Shown here one piece after another: positions 30,559 to 42,695 of a DNA stretch of 64,000 bases. How positions within the stretch are numbered: position 1 is the stretch's first letter; every line of letters begins with the position of its first letter. The position numbers and the translations under genes were made by a program. This DNA comes from Escherichia phage MIZ4: sequence record OR167180; one strand, given 5' to 3'. Under the pieces are notes generated by a model, which did not search any database, was not told the origin of the DNA, and was given only the letters and a program-made list of their open reading frames with translations.

Positions 30559-32049
30559 ATGGCAGATTTGAAACATGGATCTACTGTAGGCGGATCTCCC
30601 ATTTGGACGCAAGGAAACTTGACGATCCAGCCAGCGGGTGATCAGCTTTTCTACAAAGGTCATAAAATCTATACCGCTTTTGATAAACCTTCGGCTGCCG
30701 ATTTTGATGCTGTTAGTGCATCCGAAGGCGGGACATTTCAGAAACTGGTCCATTTTGAAGAAGGTTTAAGCGTAGGTAGCGCATCCGGTGGAGAAACCAA
30801 AAAGAACGGGATCTTTAAAGGAAATAGTGATGCGGCTAACTTTGATGGTGTAAGTTGGGGTTTGCATTCGTGGAAATCTATTGGTTTTGTTAATGCTCGT
30901 GATGATGTTATCATGGCTTATATTGACACTACCACAGGTGATTTTAAAACTAAAGGGACCATCGAAGGGACAACCATTAAAGACACTGGTCAACGCGTCT
31001 ATAGCCCTGTTAATAAGCCGACAAACAATGATTTGGATTTGGTTTCCAGACAAGGCGATACAATCACCGGAACTTATAATTTAAACACGGTTAATTTTAA
31101 ATTGTCGGTTGATTCTAAGCTGGTTGCGAGGGATCGGGATTTTATTACTTTCGATGCTGAAAACATTTATTATGGAAACGTTCTTGATACTTTAGTATTT
31201 CGTAGCAAGAACGAGCCTAAAATTTTTGTTAACGGTAGTGAAGGTAATTTTTATCATACCAACAACAAGCCTACTAAAGCCGACGTAGGATTGGGTAATG
31301 TCACCAATGACGCGCAAGTTAAGCGTGCTGGTGACATTATGGAAGGTAATTTGCAAGCGCCCAAAATGCTTGTGACAACCGATCCATCTGGACCTAATGA
31401 TCTGGTTAGATTGAGCTACTTTGAGAAAAAAGCAATGGTAGCTAGTCCAACTATCATTGGAAATGTTGATTGGAATACCCTTATTAATCGCGGTATGTTC
31501 AGTGTGGAGAATGCCGAAGCCGGACAAAATAAACCATCTGATAGCTATTATAACGGTGTTTTGATGGTATATCGACCGGAAGATGCGGTTGGTACTGTTC
31601 GAGTTGTTCAGGTCTATTACCCTGAATCAATTAATCATCCTGTTTGCTGGCGTTCTTGTTCCGGTAACTCGTGGACCGCATGGAACTATGTAGATCACCG
31701 TAAATTGGCTGATGCTCGCTATGTTAATGTGACTGGCGATACCATGACTGGGGCGTTGACGGTTCCTGCTGCGAACGGCGTTCATACCACAGAAGCTAAC
31801 TATAATGGTGATAATTGCTACGCTGGACTTAATAGCTTAAATGGTACAGCAATGATTCATCGTGTTAGTGATATTAAAGCGCACGAGAAACTAGGAATCA
31901 CACATGATTCTAAAATTATTTTCGTTAAATCCCGTGACAATACTCAAGATACAGACACTTTCGAAATATACCACGAAGGACATAAACCAACTCCTGATGA
32001 GGTTGGCGCGGTTCCGCTCAATGCGGTAATTGATTTTGGTACTTTCTAA
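30559..32049 (+). CDS. 36: long tail fibre protein (gp36 position; 496 aa)
   Basis: ORF track; position between 35 and 37. Confidence 0.55.
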   Translation: MADLKHGSTVGGSPIWTQGNLTIQPAGDQLFYKGHKIYTAFDKPSAADFDAVSASEGGTFQKLVHFEEGLSVGSASGGETKKNGIFKGNSDAANFDGVSWGLHSWKSIGFVNARDDVIMAYIDTTTGDFKTKGTIEGTTIKDTGQRVYSPVNKPTNNDLDLVSRQGDTITGTYNLNTVNFKLSVDSKLVARDRDFITFDAENIYYGNVLDTLVFRSKNEPKIFVNGSEGNFYHTNNKPTKADVGLGNVTNDAQVKRAGDIMEGNLQAPKMLVTTDPSGPNDLVRLSYFEKKAMVASPTIIGNVDWNTLINRGMFSVENAEAGQNKPSDSYYNGVLMVYRPEDAVGTVRVVQVYYPESINHPVCWRSCSGNSWTAWNYVDHRKLADARYVNVTGDTMTGALTVPAANGVHTTEANYNGDNCYAGLNSLNGTAMIHRVSDIKAHEKLGITHDSKIIFVKSRDNTQDTDTFEIYHEGHKPTPDEVGAVPLNAVIDFGTF

Positions 32050-34922: not shown

Positions 34923-35705
34923 ATGGCAGTAGTTGGTGTTCCTGGTTGGATTGGAAGTTCAGCCGCAAATGAAACAGGGCAACGATGGATGAGTCAAGCG
35001 GCTGGTCAACTAAGATTGGGTGTTCCTTGCTGGATGAGTCAATTTTCAGGTCGCTCGCGAGAAATTATTCATACACTTGGTGCAGACCATAACTTCAATG
35101 GTCAGTGGTTCCGTGATAGATGCTTTGAGGCAGGTAGTACACCTATAGTGTTTAATATTACAGGTGATTTAGTATCATATTCTAAAGATGTTCCTTTATT
35201 CTTCATGTACGGGGATACACCAAATGAATATGTTCAGTTGAATATACATGGCGTAACGATGTATGGTCGTGGCGGGAATGGCGGTAGCAATGGTCCTGGA
35301 TCAGCCGGGGGGCATTGTATTCAAAATGATATTGGTGGGAGGCTAAGAATTAATAATGGCGGTGCTATCGCTGGCGGCGGTGGCGGTGGCGGTGGCGGGT
35401 ATTATTCTCCTTTTTCACAAATGAGATTAACCTTTGGCGGTGGCGGTGGGCGTCCGTTTGGTGCGCCCGGCGGATCTATTGATATGCAATCAGGCGCAAC
35501 TGCTGGTACTCTTTATGCGCCCGGATCGGGGTCCGTGAACGGTATCTATAATGGCGGAAGCGGTGGTGAGGTAGGCGCCGCAGGAGGTAGATGTAATATT
35601 CGTGGTCAAGGATCTGAATATAATGGCGGCGATTCTGGATATGCTGTTATAGGGTCTTCTCCAACGTGGCAAAATCGCGGAGCTATTTACGGACCGGCTG
35701 TTTAG
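34923..35705 (+). CDS. 38: tail fibre adhesin, T2-type gp38 with glycine-rich motifs
   Basis: ORF track; several poly-Gly motifs ([26 protein letters not shown]) separated by variable segments. Confidence 0.8.
35374..35459 (+). repeat. GGC/GGT trinucleotide tracts encoding poly-Gly in gene 38
   Basis: ggcggcggtggcggtggcggtggcggg and ggcggtggcggtggg read directly. Confidence 0.7.
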
Positions 35706-36042: not shown

Positions 36043-36699
36043 ATGCAAGTTTCTGAAAAAGGGAAAGACTTTGCTATCTCAAATGTCCTGCGCGCTATTT
36101 TCACAACTAAAAGCACGGAGTTGCTCGTACTTCGTGTTTTTGCTGCCGTCGTGTTGTCCATATTAGCATTTGTCGTTTATAGTAAAAACGAGTTATTTGC
36201 GCTTTATAAAGAGACTCGTTATGAGACTTATGCTCACGTTCTCCAGGTAGAGAAAGACCGCAATTTTGATAATGCAGCACAGGAGCAGTTACAGATAGTT
36301 CATGTGTCGGCTGATGCCGATTTTTCTGCTGTTTTTAGTTTTCGTCCGAAAAACCTAAACTATTTTGTTGATTTGGTGGCATATGAAGGAAAGTTACCGC
36401 ATACAATCGATGAAAAAAATTTAGGCGGATTCCCTATCAATAAAACGAGTGAAGAATATCGTAGGCATCTTTTAGGTAAATCCTATTTTACCGATAAAGA
36501 TTTCCAGTATATTCCATCAAGAGAAAAGAAATTAGAGAGTATCGATATAGGGGTTATGTATTCTTGTCCTATATTCAATCTCGACAATGTCTATTCTGGT
36601 AGTATCTCCATTGCATGGAAGAATAAACCGGATATTGACATTGAGAATTTAGATACTCTTTGCAATCAATCTGCCAGAATCCTCGGAAGGATTAGATAA
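36043..36699 (+). CDS. t: holin
   Basis: ORF track; 218 aa, N-terminal TM, EQLQIVH(V/I)S..ADFSAV(F/Y)SFRPKNLNYFVD nearly identical to T4 T. Confidence 0.93.
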   Translation: MQVSEKGKDFAISNVLRAIFTTKSTELLVLRVFAAVVLSILAFVVYSKNELFALYKETRYETYAHVLQVEKDRNFDNAAQEQLQIVHVSADADFSAVFSFRPKNLNYFVDLVAYEGKLPHTIDEKNLGGFPINKTSEEYRRHLLGKSYFTDKDFQYIPSREKKLESIDIGVMYSCPIFNLDNVYSGSISIAWKNKPDIDIENLDTLCNQSARILGRIR

Positions 36700-36704
36700 C
36701 TTAA

Positions 36705-36740
36705 AGGGGAAGCCTTTCGGCCTCCCCTTCTTTTTTATTG
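36705..36740. terminator. bidirectional terminator between convergent genes: aggggaagcc-tttc-ggcctcccct with flanking T-runs
   Basis: read directly. Confidence 0.6.
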
Positions 36741-36983
36741 GCGCATAGAAGCCCCTGAATCACATTTTGACGCTGTATGATGAAAACATGTAGCGTACCA
36801 GTCATCGGCTTGTTTGTCTTCGTCAGAGAACGCATAATTTCGTTGTATACCGTTTTCTACTTTGACCAGTGCAATAGCTGTTTCTGGAAGATCAATCAAT
36901 CGGACAAAATCACCATCTTCCCACTCTACACGAGCAATATCATAACCCATCTCAAAATATACAATCGCTTGTTCTAATTTCAT
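36735..36983 (-). CDS. hypothetical small protein
   Basis: ORF track. Confidence 0.45.
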   Translation of the reverse strand: MKLEQAIVYFEMGYDIARVEWEDGDFVRLIDLPETAIALVKVENGIQRNYAFSDEDKQADDWYATCFHHTASKCDSGASMRQ

Positions 36984-37315: not shown

Positions 37316-37660
37316 TTACAGATGAAAACCCGTTACGATCACCGCATCGATCATACCGCTAGGGATAAACGGTTCACCCTCTTTTATCTCAACTTTGAAT
37401 TGATGCCATTTCGCTAATACTTCTTCCGGTACACCCAGCGATTCGGCGTCTGCTTTAGTTTCATCCATAATCCAGCTAGGCTGCATGAGAGCATAGTTTA
37501 CATAGTCCATTTCTGGGGTCATGTCATCAATGTTAATATATTTGCAGTTGACGCGTTTCAGAATTTCAAATTCTTTATCATCAACCTGTACCATGTACAA
37601 TTCGGTAGTTTCTGGAATCAGTTCCCATACAATCAGTACATTTTTCATAATTAGCCTCAC
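37316..37660 (-). CDS. hypothetical protein
   Basis: ORF track. Confidence 0.45.
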   Translation of the reverse strand: MRLIMKNVLIVWELIPETTELYMVQVDDKEFEILKRVNCKYINIDDMTPEMDYVNYALMQPSWIMDETKADAESLGVPEEVLAKWHQFKVEIKEGEPFIPSGMIDAVIVTGFHL

Positions 37661-38025
37661 TTAACAAAGATTTTCTTTAATGCTTTCAGGATAGTTGCTT
37701 CCGGTGATTCTTCCGGTGGAGGAAGCAATTCTACCACTTCCTCTTCCAACTCGATATAGTCTACCAGATATTCTACATAGAATGCAAGTGCTTCCATGAA
37801 ATTAGATGCTACATCCGATTCACCACAAGCGCCTACATGCATTGTATAAACATCACTGCGATCAAGTTTGTGGATGCTTCCCAGATAGTTTCGGTTATAC
37901 CAGACTTCCCACACTTTCAGCTTTCCGGTTTTGGTTGCTGTTTTATAATCGGTTTCGTAATGATGCAATTGACGTTGCAAATCATTGATAATAACACATT
38001 TTTCGTAATTGTTTTGAATTTCCAT
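37657..38025 (-). CDS. hypothetical protein
   Basis: ORF track. Confidence 0.45.
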   Translation of the reverse strand: MEIQNNYEKCVIINDLQRQLHHYETDYKTATKTGKLKVWEVWYNRNYLGSIHKLDRSDVYTMHVGACGESDVASNFMEALAFYVEYLVDYIELEEEVVELLPPPEESPEATILKALKKIFVK

Positions 38026-38250: not shown

Positions 38251-38538
38251 TTATTTTCGGTTGTGGTCACGATATGTTTTAAAATATCCCTCGTACCACG
38301 GTAAAACATCTGGATTTTTACCACTATACAGACCTTTAACCATCATGTCAATAAGGCCATCTGGTGTTTGATAGTTTCCAGCTTTTATAAGCTCTCTGAT
38401 TAAAATCTCTCTGTATATGTCTTTCGGATCTTCGTAATCAACTTGTATTGTGGTTGTGGTCTCATTCAATTTGGTTTCTGGAGTATCTCGCATTGCATCC
38501 CACCAATCTTTTGTGATCTTCATGTTATTGAATTGCAT
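38251..38538 (-). CDS. hypothetical protein
   Basis: ORF track. Confidence 0.45.
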   Translation of the reverse strand: MQFNNMKITKDWWDAMRDTPETKLNETTTTIQVDYEDPKDIYREILIRELIKAGNYQTPDGLIDMMVKGLYSGKNPDVLPWYEGYFKTYRDHNRK

Positions 38539-38549
38539 AATTTAACCTC

Positions 38550-39308
38550 TTACTTGCACACGTATTGATCTACATCAATTGCGCCACCGAATGTAGGATG
38601 ACGTTTTTCAAATCGAATCGTTCCGTCGTTTGGTTCGAAAACGGAGTATTCATATAGATCTTTCTTGCCAACATTCTTATAAAACCCGCCTTTAGTCATA
38701 ACGGTTTCTTGTACGTTTGCTTTGTGTACGTTGTATTCGTCAATGTATACAAAATCAACCATCTTCCCATTTTTAATGGTTACTTTAAGATCTCCTGGTT
38801 GGTTTCCATATTTTGCATACAGTGGAGCTTCTTTAATTTTGGTGGAAATTCCATCTTTCATACTCCACTCATAACGAACGGTGCATTGATAGGTAAAAGT
38901 TTCGACCTTCGGTTCTTCCACCACTTTTTCTTCCTGTTTCGGTTGTTCTTCTTCAACCTTCGCAGAAGTCTCTGAATCGCTTTCTGACGCGGTTTCTTCT
39001 TTAGGTAATACATTCATCAAGTTTTGGATTTGAGCGTTGTATACAGCCTCCAGTGGCTGAATCTGCCCGATATTGATCATTGTATCACGAACAGTTTTAT
39101 TCCAGTTGCGTTGCTCTTGTTTAAGAGACGGATCAATCTTAACAGCCTTAACATATACTTCATGAAGTTTCGAATCCAGTGCGGAGATTGACTCATTAGC
39201 ACAAATAAACTTCTCTGATTTGGTAGTGGCTTTAGCGCAATCAAAGGACGCAGCATTAGCACCGAAAGCAGTAGCGGAAAGAACGATAGCAGCGATAATG
39301 TTTTTCAT
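38550..39308 (-). CDS. secreted protein with LprI-like (DUF1311) N-terminal domain, acidic linker and C-terminal domain
   Basis: ORF track; signal peptide MKNIIAAIVLSATAFGANA; SFDCAKATTKSEKFICANESISALDSKLHEVY; E/K/S-rich linker. Confidence 0.55.
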   Translation of the reverse strand: MKNIIAAIVLSATAFGANAASFDCAKATTKSEKFICANESISALDSKLHEVYVKAVKIDPSLKQEQRNWNKTVRDTMINIGQIQPLEAVYNAQIQNLMNVLPKEETASESDSETSAKVEEEQPKQEEKVVEEPKVETFTYQCTVRYEWSMKDGISTKIKEAPLYAKYGNQPGDLKVTIKNGKMVDFVYIDEYNVHKANVQETVMTKGGFYKNVGKKDLYEYSVFEPNDGTIRFEKRHPTFGGAIDVDQYVCK

Positions 39309-39337
39309 AATATATTCCTCAATGTTTTGTCTTGATG

Positions 39338-39371
39338 GGAGTATCTTACTACTCCCTTAATCCGGTGTCAA
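39338..39371 (-). promoter_or_regulatory. early promoter with palindrome GGGAGTA-N6-TACTCCC
   Basis: minus TTGACA (39366-39371), N17, TAAGAT (39343-39348). Confidence 0.5.
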
Positions 39372-39378
39372 CTACTTT

Positions 39379-39591
39379 TTAATTTTTACCCGCTCGTGCA
39401 TTAATACGCATTTTCTGCATAGCCATGATCTGGTTTACTGCTTCTTCTTTACGTTCTTGCGTGATAACGTGACTAGATTCAGCAAACTCTCCCGCAACTT
39501 CTTCGACGATCTCGCGAACTTGAGAACGTCCAAAGATGCGGTTTCCTTCGTAGCTCATAAATTCAGTCACTACTTGCTCAATAGATTTCAT
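39379..39591 (-). CDS. hypothetical small protein
   Basis: ORF track. Confidence 0.45.
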   Translation of the reverse strand: MKSIEQVVTEFMSYEGNRIFGRSQVREIVEEVAGEFAESSHVITQERKEEAVNQIMAMQKMRINARAGKN

Positions 39592-39617
39592 GTGATTCTC
39601 CTTCTTTCGTTTCGGTG

Positions 39618-39653
39618 TGGGAGTATGTTAATACTCCCATTTCTTTACGTCAA
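39618..39653 (-). promoter_or_regulatory. early promoter with palindrome GGGAGTAT-N4-ATACTCCC
   Basis: minus TTGACG (39648-39653); palindrome 39618-39637. Confidence 0.45.
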
Positions 39654-39660
39654 CCAGTTT

Positions 39661-39903
39661 TTAGAAATTTTTCGCTTCTTCTTCGGTCATCATCACCGCG
39701 CATTCGTGCATAACTTTGAAAACCGGGTCAATCATATCGAATGCTTCGCGGGACAGTTTACGAGAAGCGATTTTGATTGCTTCAACGTCTTCTACTACAG
39801 GAACAAAAACAGTTTTCAGTTCGTCGAGCATGGCAGCTTCTTTTTCATTCAGGAAGATTCCAGCGTCGTACAATGCAACTTCGATAACATTAACTTTAAC
39901 CAT
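39661..39903 (-). CDS. hypothetical small protein (80 aa)
   Basis: ORF track 39661..39966 trimmed to Met with GGAGG RBS. Confidence 0.45.
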   Translation of the reverse strand: MVKVNVIEVALYDAGIFLNEKEAAMLDELKTVFVPVVEDVEAIKIASRKLSREAFDMIDPVFKVMHECAVMMTEEEAKNF

Positions 39904-39927
39904 TTTTATTTCCTCCAGTTCGTTTCG

Positions 39928-39966
39928 GTATGGGAGTATAATACTACCGATGACCTTTGGCGTCAA
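39928..39966 (-). promoter_or_regulatory. early promoter (TTGACG) with partial palindrome
   Basis: read directly. Confidence 0.4.
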
Positions 39967-40167
39967 CTAGTTTTTGTTATTTTCGTGAAAATTTTTAGTC
40001 GCCTCATGTGCTTTTCGCTGGGCTTCTTGTTGTGCTTGCTGGCGTGCTGCCTCTTGTGAAGCCATAACGGAAGCATTTGCAGCAGTTACAGCCGCTACCA
40101 TCGCTGCGGTATTAGCATTTACAGTACATGCACTAGCCAGCAAAGCAATTGCAATCATTTTCTTCAT
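39967..40167 (-). CDS. small secreted Ala/Gln-rich protein
   Basis: ORF track; signal peptide MKKMIAIALLASACTVNA. Confidence 0.5.
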   Translation of the reverse strand: MKKMIAIALLASACTVNANTAAMVAAVTAANASVMASQEAARQQAQQEAQRKAHEATKNFHENNKN

Positions 40168-40334
40168 AGTTTCCCCTTTAGGTTATTTTCGACCTTCATC
40201 CATTCCGCGTATTCTTGTGCGGCTACTTTCGGATCTAGTCCGTCTTCGTACATTGCATCAAGTAATTCTTTGTCGGTGGGCTTATATCCTAGATAAGCCT
40301 CCACCCGATTTTTCCAAATTTTATACCAGTTCAT
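40164..40334 (-). CDS. hypothetical small protein (56 aa)
   Basis: ORF track 40164..40403 trimmed to internal Met to avoid overlap. Confidence 0.35.
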   Translation of the reverse strand: MNWYKIWKNRVEAYLGYKPTDKELLDAMYEDGLDPKVAAQEYAEWMKVENNLKGKL

Positions 40335-40670: not shown

Positions 40671-40721
40671 ACAACTTTTTAAAATAAAAAAGCCGACCAC
40701 AAGGATCGGCTTAATAATCAG

Positions 40722-41117: not shown

Positions 41118-41319
41118 ACTTTCCCTCCAAAAATTCTTTCATCAAATAGTCTATCGTTGCTCTGTGTTCTGGTGTGTTTGTTATCTCTGCTAACTTGTTC
41201 AGAGATTCAATAGTGATCCGGTTGGCTTCTTCCATAGTCTCAACGACCATTGGTACAATCTTTTTATTGTTGTACACGAAAGCCACATAACCGCCTTCTG
41301 GATATTCTTTCATAATCAA
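41110..41319 (-). CDS. hypothetical small protein
   Basis: ORF track. Confidence 0.45.
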   Translation of the reverse strand: MIMKEYPEGGYVAFVYNNKKIVPMVVETMEEANRITIESLNKLAEITNTPEHRATIDYLMKEFLEGKYD

Positions 41320-42695
41320 CCCTTCTTAAGTTCTTTAAGATCTTTCTTATATTCCTTCATTGCGGTCGTCTTTGTCCAATACTCATATTCACTATGATGT
41401 TTATCGGCATCTTTGACCAGTCGATCATACTCTTCTTGAGTAACGCTATACAATGGCATAGAAACTAGCTTATCGGCGTATGGACGCAGTTTTTCATGTC
41501 CATTGATGGATTGCATTACCTCGGCCTTTTTCTTGCCCTGTAGCTCGATTTCGCCCTTAATTACGCGATCGATAAATTCAGCTTTAGCCATTGCATAATT
41601 GTATGCTTCCAGCGTTTCCGCTTGCATCAATTCAATTCGTTTATCTACATACCCTAATCGGATTTCGACGAATCGACGGATCAGATCGCTCGCTTTCTCG
41701 AATACTTCTACTAAACCACGTTCATTAACCACTACGATATTCTGGGCTACTAACTGTGTTAGTTTAAAATCCTTCATGATTTGCTCATGTCGAGCGGATT
41801 CATCTTCGCTTTTGAAATAATCGCGTTTCAGTGTTACTTCAAATCTGAATCCATCCTTAGAGCAACGGTCATTATACGATACAATCAGATCTTTTTCTTC
41901 CAGTGCATCCAGTACCGCTACATATTCTTCACGGTCGAACTTATAAGGAACTTCTGATATTGTCAGCTTAGTCTTGCCGTTTAGTTCATATGTACCCTCA
42001 AGAATCACACCATCGCGGTCATCACGAGGGATAACTTTACCCGTGAATTTCGGGAATTGAACACTAGGTTCTTTATCCAGTTTTCCGGCGAGTGCTAGCT
42101 CTGTGCATTCAATAAGGCTTTCCAGTGAATGCGGTAAAATGTCAGTTTTATACCCTGTAGCAATACCACTAATACCATTAGCCAATACCATTGGCACAAC
42201 TGGCAAGTAGAACGCTGGCGGGATGTGTTCCAGATCTTCGTGCTTAGGTGCGCAATTCATATCTTTATAGATTTTAAAGAAGTTTTCATGCACACGAGCA
42301 AAAATATAACGTGCTGCACCTGCTTTCTGGACTAAACGCGATCCGAAGTTACCTTGACCGTCAAGCAGTGGAGTATTATTGCTCCATGTATTCGCCATGA
42401 GTGATCCGGCTTCTACGGCATTAGTTTCCCCGTGGTGATACCCCAACTCAGCGACACCAGATCCAATATCTGCCATCTTACGGAATTTCTTACGGTCGCC
42501 TTTACTCTTTTGCAAAGCACATTCCATAACAAAGCGTTGCACTGGTTTAAGCCCATCCACTAATTGAGGAATCCCGCGTTCCTCGGCAGAATAGATCGCA
42601 TATTCCTTAGCTTCATTATGTACAATGCTTTCAAGGCTGCGGTAAGTAAATGTGTTTACAATTTGACTAATTTTATCCATCTTCACCTCATACAC
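41316..42695 (-). CDS. 52: DNA topoisomerase II medium subunit (GyrA-like)
   Basis: ORF track; GLKPVQRFVM N-terminal motif; 459 aa. Confidence 0.9.
   Translation of the reverse strand: MYEVKMDKISQIVNTFTYRSLESIVHNEAKEYAIYSAEERGIPQLVDGLKPVQRFVMECALQKSKGDRKKFRKMADIGSGVAELGYHHGETNAVEAGSLMANTWSNNTPLLDGQGNFGSRLVQKAGAARYIFARVHENFFKIYKDMNCAPKHEDLEHIPPAFYLPVVPMVLANGISGIATGYKTDILPHSLESLIECTELALAGKLDKEPSVQFPKFTGKVIPRDDRDGVILEGTYELNGKTKLTISEVPYKFDREEYVAVLDALEEKDLIVSYNDRCSKDGFRFEVTLKRDYFKSEDESARHEQIMKDFKLTQLVAQNIVVVNERGLVEVFEKASDLIRRFVEIRLGYVDKRIELMQAETLEAYNYAMAKAEFIDRVIKGEIELQGKKKAEVMQSINGHEKLRPYADKLVSMPLYSVTQEEYDRLVKDADKHHSEYEYWTKTTAMKEYKKDLKELKKG

Follow-up and report, generated by a model that had tools for sequence, protein, structure and literature searches.

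The 64,000-nucleotide stretch of the genome of Escherichia phage MIZ4 considered here (OR167180; hereafter the window) carries, in the interval between the holin gene t and the topoisomerase gene 52, a gene for an exported protein of 252 residues (the 252-aa protein; 38550–39308, minus strand) that couples a constant N-terminal module to a swappable C-terminal domain and has this module in common with a prophage of Escherichia coli. The preliminary description of the interval, made from its letters alone, overlooked this most interesting of its features; the combination of a constant 'handle' with a variable barrel, and its sharing with prophages, appear to be undescribed in the searchable literature. 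We propose that the 252-aa protein acts as a periplasmic guard against incoming wall-degrading enzymes and thereby gives superinfection exclusion, a reading to which we assign a probability of roughly one in three (0.35).

Between positions 36700 and 41320 the window is 100% identical to Escherichia phage MIZ5 (OR167181.1), a Krischvirus (RB49-like) whose isolation host is E. coli B, and the same t-to-52 region is 92–97% identical to those of about 60 other Krischvirus genomes. Whole-genome searches were made on the 165,508-bp genome of MIZ5, of which the window represents positions 32001–96000. The 252-aa protein, an ortholog of RB49p262 and phi1p262, is annotated in MIZ5 as a 'hypothetical protein' (CDS0102), matches phrog_14799 across its full length (E 1.8e-156), and has its gene in about 58 Krischvirus records.

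The evidence strongly indicates that 38550–39308 encodes a soluble exported protein made up of a signal peptide, a four-helix DUF1311 domain, a linker of about 35 residues and a barrel of about 115 residues. Export was called heuristically, from a basic N-terminus, a hydrophobic 10-mer and an AXA-type cleavage site, together with comparison between phages. The predicted signal peptide comprises residues 1–19 (MKNIIAAIVLSATAFGANA/AS, a slash here and below marking the point of cleavage; 39252–39308, minus strand) and is probably of the signal peptidase I type, with the site ANA/AS and no lipobox at the signal peptide. The two signal peptides recognized in the preliminary description are the only ones among the 14 open reading frames (ORFs) of the interval to join all three elements: the best 10-residue Kyte-Doolittle mean (KD10) is 2.54 in the 252-aa protein and 2.55 in a 66-residue peptide considered below, and at most 1.75 in the other 12 ORFs. 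The predicted cleavage is backed by the mature start 'ASFDC', which is conserved right after the AXA-type site in four phage genera (Krischvirus and those of Marfa, SSU5 and AS-sw) behind divergent signal peptides. A crude heuristic scan of the whole MIZ5 genome returned about seven exported candidates, namely the 252-aa protein, the 66-aa peptide, the RI-type antiholin, the i-spanin, one lipoprotein and two further secreted ORFs. A 161-aa ORF in the MIZ5 genome outside the window (L006:26996–27481, minus strand) has a clean lipobox (FMLTG/C), lies beside ADP-ribosyltransferase genes, and has no family match.

The DUF1311/LprI helical domain occupies residues 20–101 (39006–39251, minus strand) and has invariant cysteines at positions 24 and 36, as expected of the exported, conserved-cysteine helical domains of this family. 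The LprI profile (PF07007) matches residues 24–76 along profile positions 1–71 of 106, with 26.0 bits against a curated cut-off of 22 (E 1.3e-5), so that the earlier assignment of this domain stands above the Pfam threshold; the Phi1, P0007, P0013 and P0019 alleles likewise pass it, and the domain shows a fold match to 3gi7 (Pseudomonas putida PP0307). The following linker (residues 102–136; 38901–39005, minus strand), previously noted as long and acidic, has 13 Asp/Glu and five Lys/Arg residues and is predicted to be disordered, with a predicted local distance difference test score (pLDDT) below 50. The class A C-terminal domain (residues 137–252; 38553–38900, minus strand), noted before as beta-rich, is modeled by AlphaFold on its own as a barrel of about nine strands (mean pLDDT 85; predicted template-modeling score, pTM, 0.77), whose first and last strands contain Cys142 and Cys251, respectively. 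In a full-length AlphaFold model built from a 15-sequence alignment, residues 1–21 have a pLDDT below 50, four helices span residues 30–98, disorder extends over residues 104–132, and the beta domain covers residues 135–251 with a pLDDT of about 88. All 22 variants examined have exactly four cysteines, as two domain-internal pairs. A sequence search of the PDB gave no match.

The domain call as such is not new, because a weak DUF1311 match (E 0.2) has been listed for RB49ORF260c (Nolan et al., 2006; PMC1524935) and the RB49 ortholog bears the UniProt name 'Lysozyme inhibitor LprI-like N-terminal domain-containing protein'. What stands out is the distribution of variation along the protein. In an alignment of homologues drawn from a 5.8-billion-protein collection, the signal peptide, the DUF1311 domain and the linker, which together make up residues 1 to about 135, are near-invariant, and the C-terminal domain is hypervariable between its two invariant cysteines. 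The N-terminal module is at least 97% identical across 58 Krischvirus records, and the identity of the C-terminal domain is bimodal, being at least 95% in 44 records (class A, with RB49 and MIZ5) and about 36% in 12 (class B, with Phi1, GEC-3S and MIZ2/3/6). In their DNA, MIZ5 and Phi1 have 96.5% identity from the promoter across the N-terminal module, up to window position 38907; blastn finds no match between them over the barrel, and beyond it identity is 69.8% over a downstream 95-aa ORF and then 97%, against a baseline of 96–97%. Homology to the other alleles and to the prophage copies breaks off in the linker, the blastn breakpoints lying at window 38907 and at query positions 443–480.

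Metagenomic and IMG/VR loci supply three further classes. Class C occurs in Krischvirus contigs (P0007 and L023) and in prophages (P0003, L011, L012 and L032), class D in prophages (P0013) and on a 175-kb contig (P0014), and class E (P0019, P0015 and P0020) has no detectable homology to classes A–D by profile comparison (probability 4.5%). At least five barrel classes can thus be told apart, with mutual identities of about 20–45% where homology is detectable, and two of them are common to lytic and temperate phages. An exhaustive search of 1.84 billion representative proteins with the class A–D profile retrieved one cluster of true relatives, the other matches being short, located in giant repetitive proteins and judged spurious; as far as its sequence goes, the barrel is an orphan restricted to this group.

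The tract in which class A and class B phages diverge includes the 95-aa ORF just downstream (RB49p261; 38251–38538, minus strand; phrog_15915, function unknown; Pfam search without match), which has two alleles of 49% amino acid identity. We considered this ORF as an obligate partner of the C-terminal domain and rejected it, because its identity between class B and class C phages is 95%, against 30% for their barrels. The same overall plan of signal peptide, DUF1311 domain and charged linker, joined to an unrelated two-cysteine C-terminal domain, recurs in proteins of Marfa, SSU5 and AS-sw; in Aeromonas phage 65 there is DUF1311 only. In Klebsiella phage Marfa, the gene for the DUF1311 protein (252 aa, L018:1501–2259) with its different two-cysteine C-terminal domain lies between the primase gene 61 and the dCTPase gene 56, about 2 kb from a gene annotated spackle.

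The N-terminal module is found in temperate phages as well. Of 5,426 complete E. coli genomes, 26 carry a chromosomal gene for a 'lysozyme inhibitor LprI family protein' whose N-module DNA is 95–97% identical to that of the phage gene, the match spanning the ribosome-binding site to the linker, where homology ends. On sequence grounds, this identity and its abrupt stop in the linker show that a temperate phage and a genus of virulent myoviruses have recently exchanged the module. The chromosomal gene is the final one of a prophage with a terminase gpA and a Rha regulator, and adjoins the attachment site; the prophage sits in hicB, truncating the antitoxin gene and leaving hicA intact (L011:9007–9777 and L012:9001–9771, E. 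coli chromosomes). In IMG/VR, the gene likewise lies at the extreme end of prophage contigs of about 23–36 kb. Such an end-of-prophage place is the classic moron position, typical of exclusion or conversion genes.

The prophage carriers are gut and clinical E. coli isolates, as might be expected if the protein were instead a conversion factor of benefit to the host, protecting the lysogen or infected cell from animal lysozyme or from the peptidoglycan hydrolases of rival type VI secretion systems (T6SS) and having no role between phages. There are precedents for this in the DUF1311 protein Etsi4 of enterohemorrhagic E. coli, which rescues cells from the periplasm-targeted T6SS effector Etse4 (PMC12981562), and in Pantoea LprI-domain proteins, inferred to provide orphan immunity to lysozyme-like T6SS effectors (PMC9796082), and orphan immunity genes are typically polymorphic. 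However, the gene has an early promoter and is retained in nearly all virulent Krischviruses, where the gain within a short lytic cycle would be less obvious, and none of the contexts examined has a neighboring effector gene; we hold such a purely host-directed role to be quite improbable.

The fold of the barrel does not lead directly to a function. Foldseek searches with the barrel alone gave nothing at E≤0.001 and no significant PDB match, the top matches being fatty-acid-binding proteins, lipocalins and Cap15 with template-modeling (TM) scores of 0.3–0.5 and E≥0.01, and the modeled domain appears only generically calycin-like. Membership of the C-terminal domain in the MliC family was considered and rejected: there is no Pfam match to MliC (PF09864) at E≤0.1, the SxSGAxY and YxxxTKG motifs are absent from all nine variants inspected, which cover every class, and the Foldseek result is not significant. 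A calycin-like barrel might alternatively sequester a lipid, a cofactor or a signaling molecule in the periplasm, but we consider this very improbable, given that the fold matches are weak, that ligand pockets are usually conserved where this barrel falls to about 20–45% identity with one class not detectably homologous, and that the cyclic nucleotides of defense signaling are cytoplasmic and the protein is exported.

The 252-aa gene is, by the evidence of its upstream DNA, strongly indicated to be transcribed from its own sigma-70-type early promoter of the PeSL kind. The PeSL described for RB49 and phi1 by Arbiol et al. (2010; PMC2839356) combine strong sigma-70-like early promoters with terminator stem-loops and mediate the shuffling of cassettes; ORF262 goes unmentioned in that study. 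The cassette of the 252-aa gene (39337–39380, minus strand) comprises an AAAAA tract, a −35 element TTGACA (39366–39371), a 17-nucleotide spacer and a −10 element TAAGAT (39343–39348), and overlaps a GGGAGTA/TACTCCC stem-loop (39337–39356). Sister cassettes precede three neighboring genes, and an alignment of the four, together with sequence inspection and a scan, bears out the earlier remark that several small genes of the interval have promoter cassettes of their own. These elements show the AT-rich tract, sigma-70 −35 and −10 boxes, 17-nucleotide spacer, adjacent stem-loop and intergenic location in a hyperplastic region that are expected of PeSL. One of them (TTGACG-17-TATTAT; 39938–39966, minus strand) lies directly downstream of the 66-aa gene and would drive an 80-aa ORF (39661–39903). 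Promoter-like sites are no more frequent in the interval than in shuffled controls (12 observed against 13.3); the evidence for PeSL is that the four sites are intergenic and resemble one another. The best sigma-70 consensus match of the interval (TTGACA-17-TATAGT, 11/12; 38323–38351, minus strand) is found inside the 95-aa ORF, about 100 nucleotides upstream of a 63-aa gene, and a strong intrinsic-terminator-like hairpin of nine pairs with a T-run (40690–40712, minus strand) directly follows a 131-aa ORF and is itself closely followed by a PeSL-type promoter.

The known T4 proteins that might account for exclusion or for regulation at this locus are not recognizable. Across the 14 ORFs of the interval, there is no Pfam match at E≤0.1 to MotA (PF09114/PF09158), AsiA (PF09010), Spackle (PF25676) or Imm (PF14373), although the same library detects the T4 proteins strongly (150.9 bits for T4 Sp). 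Against the whole MIZ5 genome, tblastn searches with T4 MotA and AsiA (E≥1.2) and with T4 Imm (E≥4.5) returned noise, and the best match of T4 Sp (E 0.05) falls in frame within the gp41 helicase gene; the positive controls gp52 (3e-146), t (2e-66) and Dmd (3e-10) were recovered. The preliminary description had also seen no MotA and no recognizable AsiA among the small ORFs and had called for the whole-genome search, which agrees. This is not new, since for RB49 neither a motA ortholog nor a middle-promoter consensus was found and AsiA orthologs were named only for other phages (Nolan et al., 2006; PMC1524935). A 122-aa ORF (37657–38025, minus strand) is the sole gene of the interval to keep a link to the T4 asiA-motA interval: the RB49 record notes its likeness to a 12.8-kDa T4 protein of that region, and its homologues are Phage_T4_Y16F in precomputed Pfam. 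Spackle homologues exist in 904 phage records. How Krischviruses exclude competitors is not addressed in the searchable literature.

We propose that the 252-aa protein would reside in the periplasm of the infected cell or lysogen and there bind and neutralize wall-degrading enzymes arriving from outside. Chief among these would be the tail-tip lysozymes that competing phages bring, and T6SS muramidase effectors may also be included. The cell would thereby exclude superinfecting phages and resist lysis from without. Which enemy enzyme is recognized would depend on the variable barrel, with the N-terminal module as its constant handle, and the protein would be a functional analogue, not a homologue, of T4 Spackle, which MIZ5 lacks. 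The phage's own lysis would be unaffected: its tail protein gp5 carries a Phage_lysozyme domain, and its endolysin belongs to the M15 peptidases rather than the muramidases, so that an inhibitor of muramidases should not block it. This endolysin is a 129-aa Peptidase_M15_4 protein (1.4e-12) encoded outside the window (MIZ5 genome 133235–133624, minus strand); the listing of RB49ORF102c as a D-Ala-D-Ala carboxypeptidase agrees with it (PMC1524935).

The export signal, the DUF1311 assignment, the early promoter of its own, the moron position, and the absence of Spackle and Imm are all consistent with such a guard, and a polymorphic C-terminal domain on a constant N-terminal module is as expected of a conflict interface. 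LprI and Etsi4 are two experimental precedents of envelope protection by DUF1311 proteins. The original guess that periplasmic proteins at this locus serve superinfection exclusion or lysis regulation is consistent with these features and with the non-muramidase endolysin; two specific versions of it, in which the C-terminal allele would co-vary with gp5 or with the adhesin, were not supported.

Several points weigh against the proposal. The 'lysozyme inhibitor' name rests on Mycobacterium tuberculosis LprI, which combines DUF1311 with an MliC lysozyme inhibitor domain to which inhibition is ascribed, and Salmonella ScwA, a periplasmic DUF1311 protein without MliC, gave no lysozyme resistance, so that the name overstates what the domain does (PMC7933661). 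Etsi4, which we placed by gene order in the Sakai genome as ECs_0213, is distantly related: close kinship was rejected, as its LprI profile score of 18.7 bits falls short of the cut-off and no pairwise similarity links it to the phage protein. The barrel classes do not track the phages' own tail lysozyme, and co-evolution with it was discarded, gp5 being at least 99% identical in 59 of 59 Krischvirus records, class A and class B alike. The class E barrel stands outside the detectable homology of the others. Marfa has a DUF1311 protein as well as a Spackle-like match that is weak (E 1e-3; annotation 'spackle periplasmic'), which indicates that the two are not simple substitutes and weakens the idea of a strict complementarity between them.

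Polymorphism of a binding domain would also suit a protein that masks a receptor. Here the barrel would bind an outer-membrane receptor or envelope component from the periplasmic side and block adsorption or DNA entry, with each class corresponding to a receptor. The gene is common to virulent and temperate phages, in the latter in a moron position, a pattern also seen for cor of T1-like and lambdoid phages; the barrel is of a generic beta-barrel binder fold, and a related barrel that stands alone in an Erwinia phage bears the annotation of a lipoprotein. The receptor blockers Cor and Llp are outer-membrane lipoproteins, however, and the 252-aa protein has neither lipobox nor membrane anchor. 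Moreover, its C-terminal allele does not follow the adhesin, class A phages carrying at least two adhesin types, and the DUF1311 module would be left without a role. We therefore regard masking as unlikely. As to the adhesins, the gp38-type tail-fiber adhesin of MIZ5 (window 34923–35705, plus strand; genome 66923–67705) has about 95% protein identity to those of RB14, IP008, SF2-1 and other Tequatroviruses, and the gp38 proteins of MIZ5, FL04, FL15, KMB43 and LF73P4 are all about 95% identical to Tequatrovirus gp38. Class A phages other than these, RB49 for example, are not among the 60 best gp38 matches (identity at least 93.5%); among those 60, gp38 is common to these five Krischvirus records only, which points to a recent transfer of the adhesin between genera.

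A further explanation makes the 252-aa protein a regulator of wall hydrolases or of lysis timing, exerting through its DUF1311 module a ScwA-like control over a lytic transglycosylase, which would be host MltD or the secreted SLT-domain protein of the phage, or feeding into the holin and antiholin. ScwA raises the levels of MltD and lyses cells when overproduced (PMC7933661); MIZ5 itself has genes for an RI-type antiholin and for a secreted SLT-domain protein of 196 residues, and the gene of the 252-aa protein is 2 kb from holin t. This proximity carries little information, because the locus is a hyperplastic region (PMC2839356). A hypervariable domain, and a moron place beside an attachment site, would be unexpected for a housekeeping regulator, and the 252-aa protein has no likeness to RI or RIII in Pfam or PHROG; such a regulatory role seems to us improbable. 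The SLT-domain ORF (MIZ5 genome 128822–129412, minus strand, outside the window) has a signal-peptide-like N-terminus and an SLT lytic-transglycosylase domain (8e-6) and so represents a secreted wall hydrolase of the phage, and an adjoining 119-aa ORF (MIZ5 genome 128455–128814, minus strand) also has a signal-peptide-like N-terminus, which is odd for its annotation as a 'valyl tRNA synthetase modifier'.

The second exported product of the interval is the Ala/Gln-rich peptide of 66 residues (39967–40167, minus strand). Its predicted signal peptide (residues 1–18; 40114–40167) would be cleaved at VNA/NT to leave a mature peptide of 48 residues, predicted to have an Ala-rich segment followed by a polar Gln/Glu/Lys helix. 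A lipobox-like LLASA/C motif led us to consider and reject lipoprotein status: signal peptidase I cleavage is likelier than lipidation, because Cys14 is not conserved, being Phe in the homologue P0023, and VNA/NT is invariant. The gene has an AGGGGA ribosome-binding site and its start overlaps the stop of a 56-aa ORF (ATGA), by which signals it is a real gene, predicted to be translationally coupled. Its DNA is 95–100% identical in 27 Krischvirus records. In these 27 records, it forms with the 80-aa ORF a mobile cassette (about 39675–40176) that is absent from the RB49 reference and from Phi1. The peptide has four homologue clusters in all and no match to a Pfam or PHROG family.

The flanks of the interval are holin t (36043–36699, plus strand; Pfam Phage_holin_T, 3.4e-60) and gene 52 (41316–42695, minus strand). 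The MIZ5 record annotates 13 coding sequences between them, every one as 'hypothetical'; with the 56-aa ORF (40164–40334, minus strand), which has no annotation in MIZ5 but has a homologue in RB49p265 by blastn and is called as a gene at this position in the metagenomic contig L016, the number reaches the 14 small genes counted in the preliminary description. Beside holin t, an 82-aa ORF (36735–36983, minus strand; phrog_1048) scores 27.9 bits with the Pfam Tad2-like family (PF11195, Thoeris anti-defense 2-like), whose cut-off is 25. The same weak match is seen for its homologues in two Krischvirus contigs from metagenomes, and a PDB sequence search with the 82-aa ORF gave none; it is a possible candidate for an anti-Thoeris sponge in RB49-like phages.

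A more general picture can be drawn, which we offer only tentatively. It would be a modular, polymorphic periplasmic exclusion system, in which a constant DUF1311 module, docking on peptidoglycan or on a hydrolase, carries interchangeable barrel cassettes for different incoming enzymes or envelope targets; these would define 'exclusion groups' of coliphages, and virulent T4-like phages and temperate prophages would share one pool of anti-competitor specificities. A near-universal early exported protein with a polymorphic domain is a testable candidate for exclusion where imm and sp are absent. Krischviruses are in use in phage-therapy cocktails, and if barrel class does determine the specificity of exclusion, it would indicate in advance which cocktail phages interfere with each other. 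Independently of its function, the gene offers a natural example of a gene module that has recently moved between virulent myoviruses of one genus and a temperate prophage of E. coli, and it gives the poorly understood DUF1311 family a phage branch.

In comparison with known systems, the 252-aa protein takes elements from several. Among inhibitors of lysozyme, proteins of the MliC/PliC/ACP class form a barrel of eight strands in which a beta1–beta8 disulfide is conserved (PMC5507604). Like MliC/PliC, Neisseria ACP and Brucella PhiA, the phage protein is exported and has a small antiparallel beta-barrel, with Cys142 and Cys251 in its first and last strands as in that disulfide; unlike these proteins of roughly eight strands, it is modeled with about nine, and they lie outside the Foldseek top 50. 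As ACP inhibits without the MliC motifs, the resemblance of the barrel to MliC and ACP is suggestive only. M. tuberculosis LprI differs in having a lipobox and an MliC domain, the second domain of the phage protein having no PF09864 match, and in contrast to LprI, ScwA, Etsi4 and PP0307 the 252-aa protein is encoded by a phage and has an allele-swapped C-terminal domain.

The closest functional parallel would be T4 Spackle (gp61.3, PF25676), which inhibits the tail lysozyme gp5 of the superinfecting phage (PMC7650644). Both are phage-encoded and exported, the periplasmic site being inferred for the 252-aa protein, but they have no sequence relationship, Spackle being a single 97-aa protein with a fold that its authors called novel. 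In its genomic setting, the gene resembles the PeSL-flanked ORFan cassettes (PMC2839356), with genes behind AAAAA-GTTGAC-17 nt-TAnnAT and a stem-loop and with the 66-aa/80-aa block present or absent as a unit; unlike in PeSL cassette shuffling, the upstream breakpoint of the C-terminal replacement lies inside the coding sequence, in the linker. As a soluble exported phage protein with no adjacent cognate toxin, it departs from polymorphic conflict proteins such as orphan T6SS immunity arrays and tail-fiber adhesin modules, yet it shares with them the joining of a conserved module to a divergent, recombining one whose alleles cross lineages.

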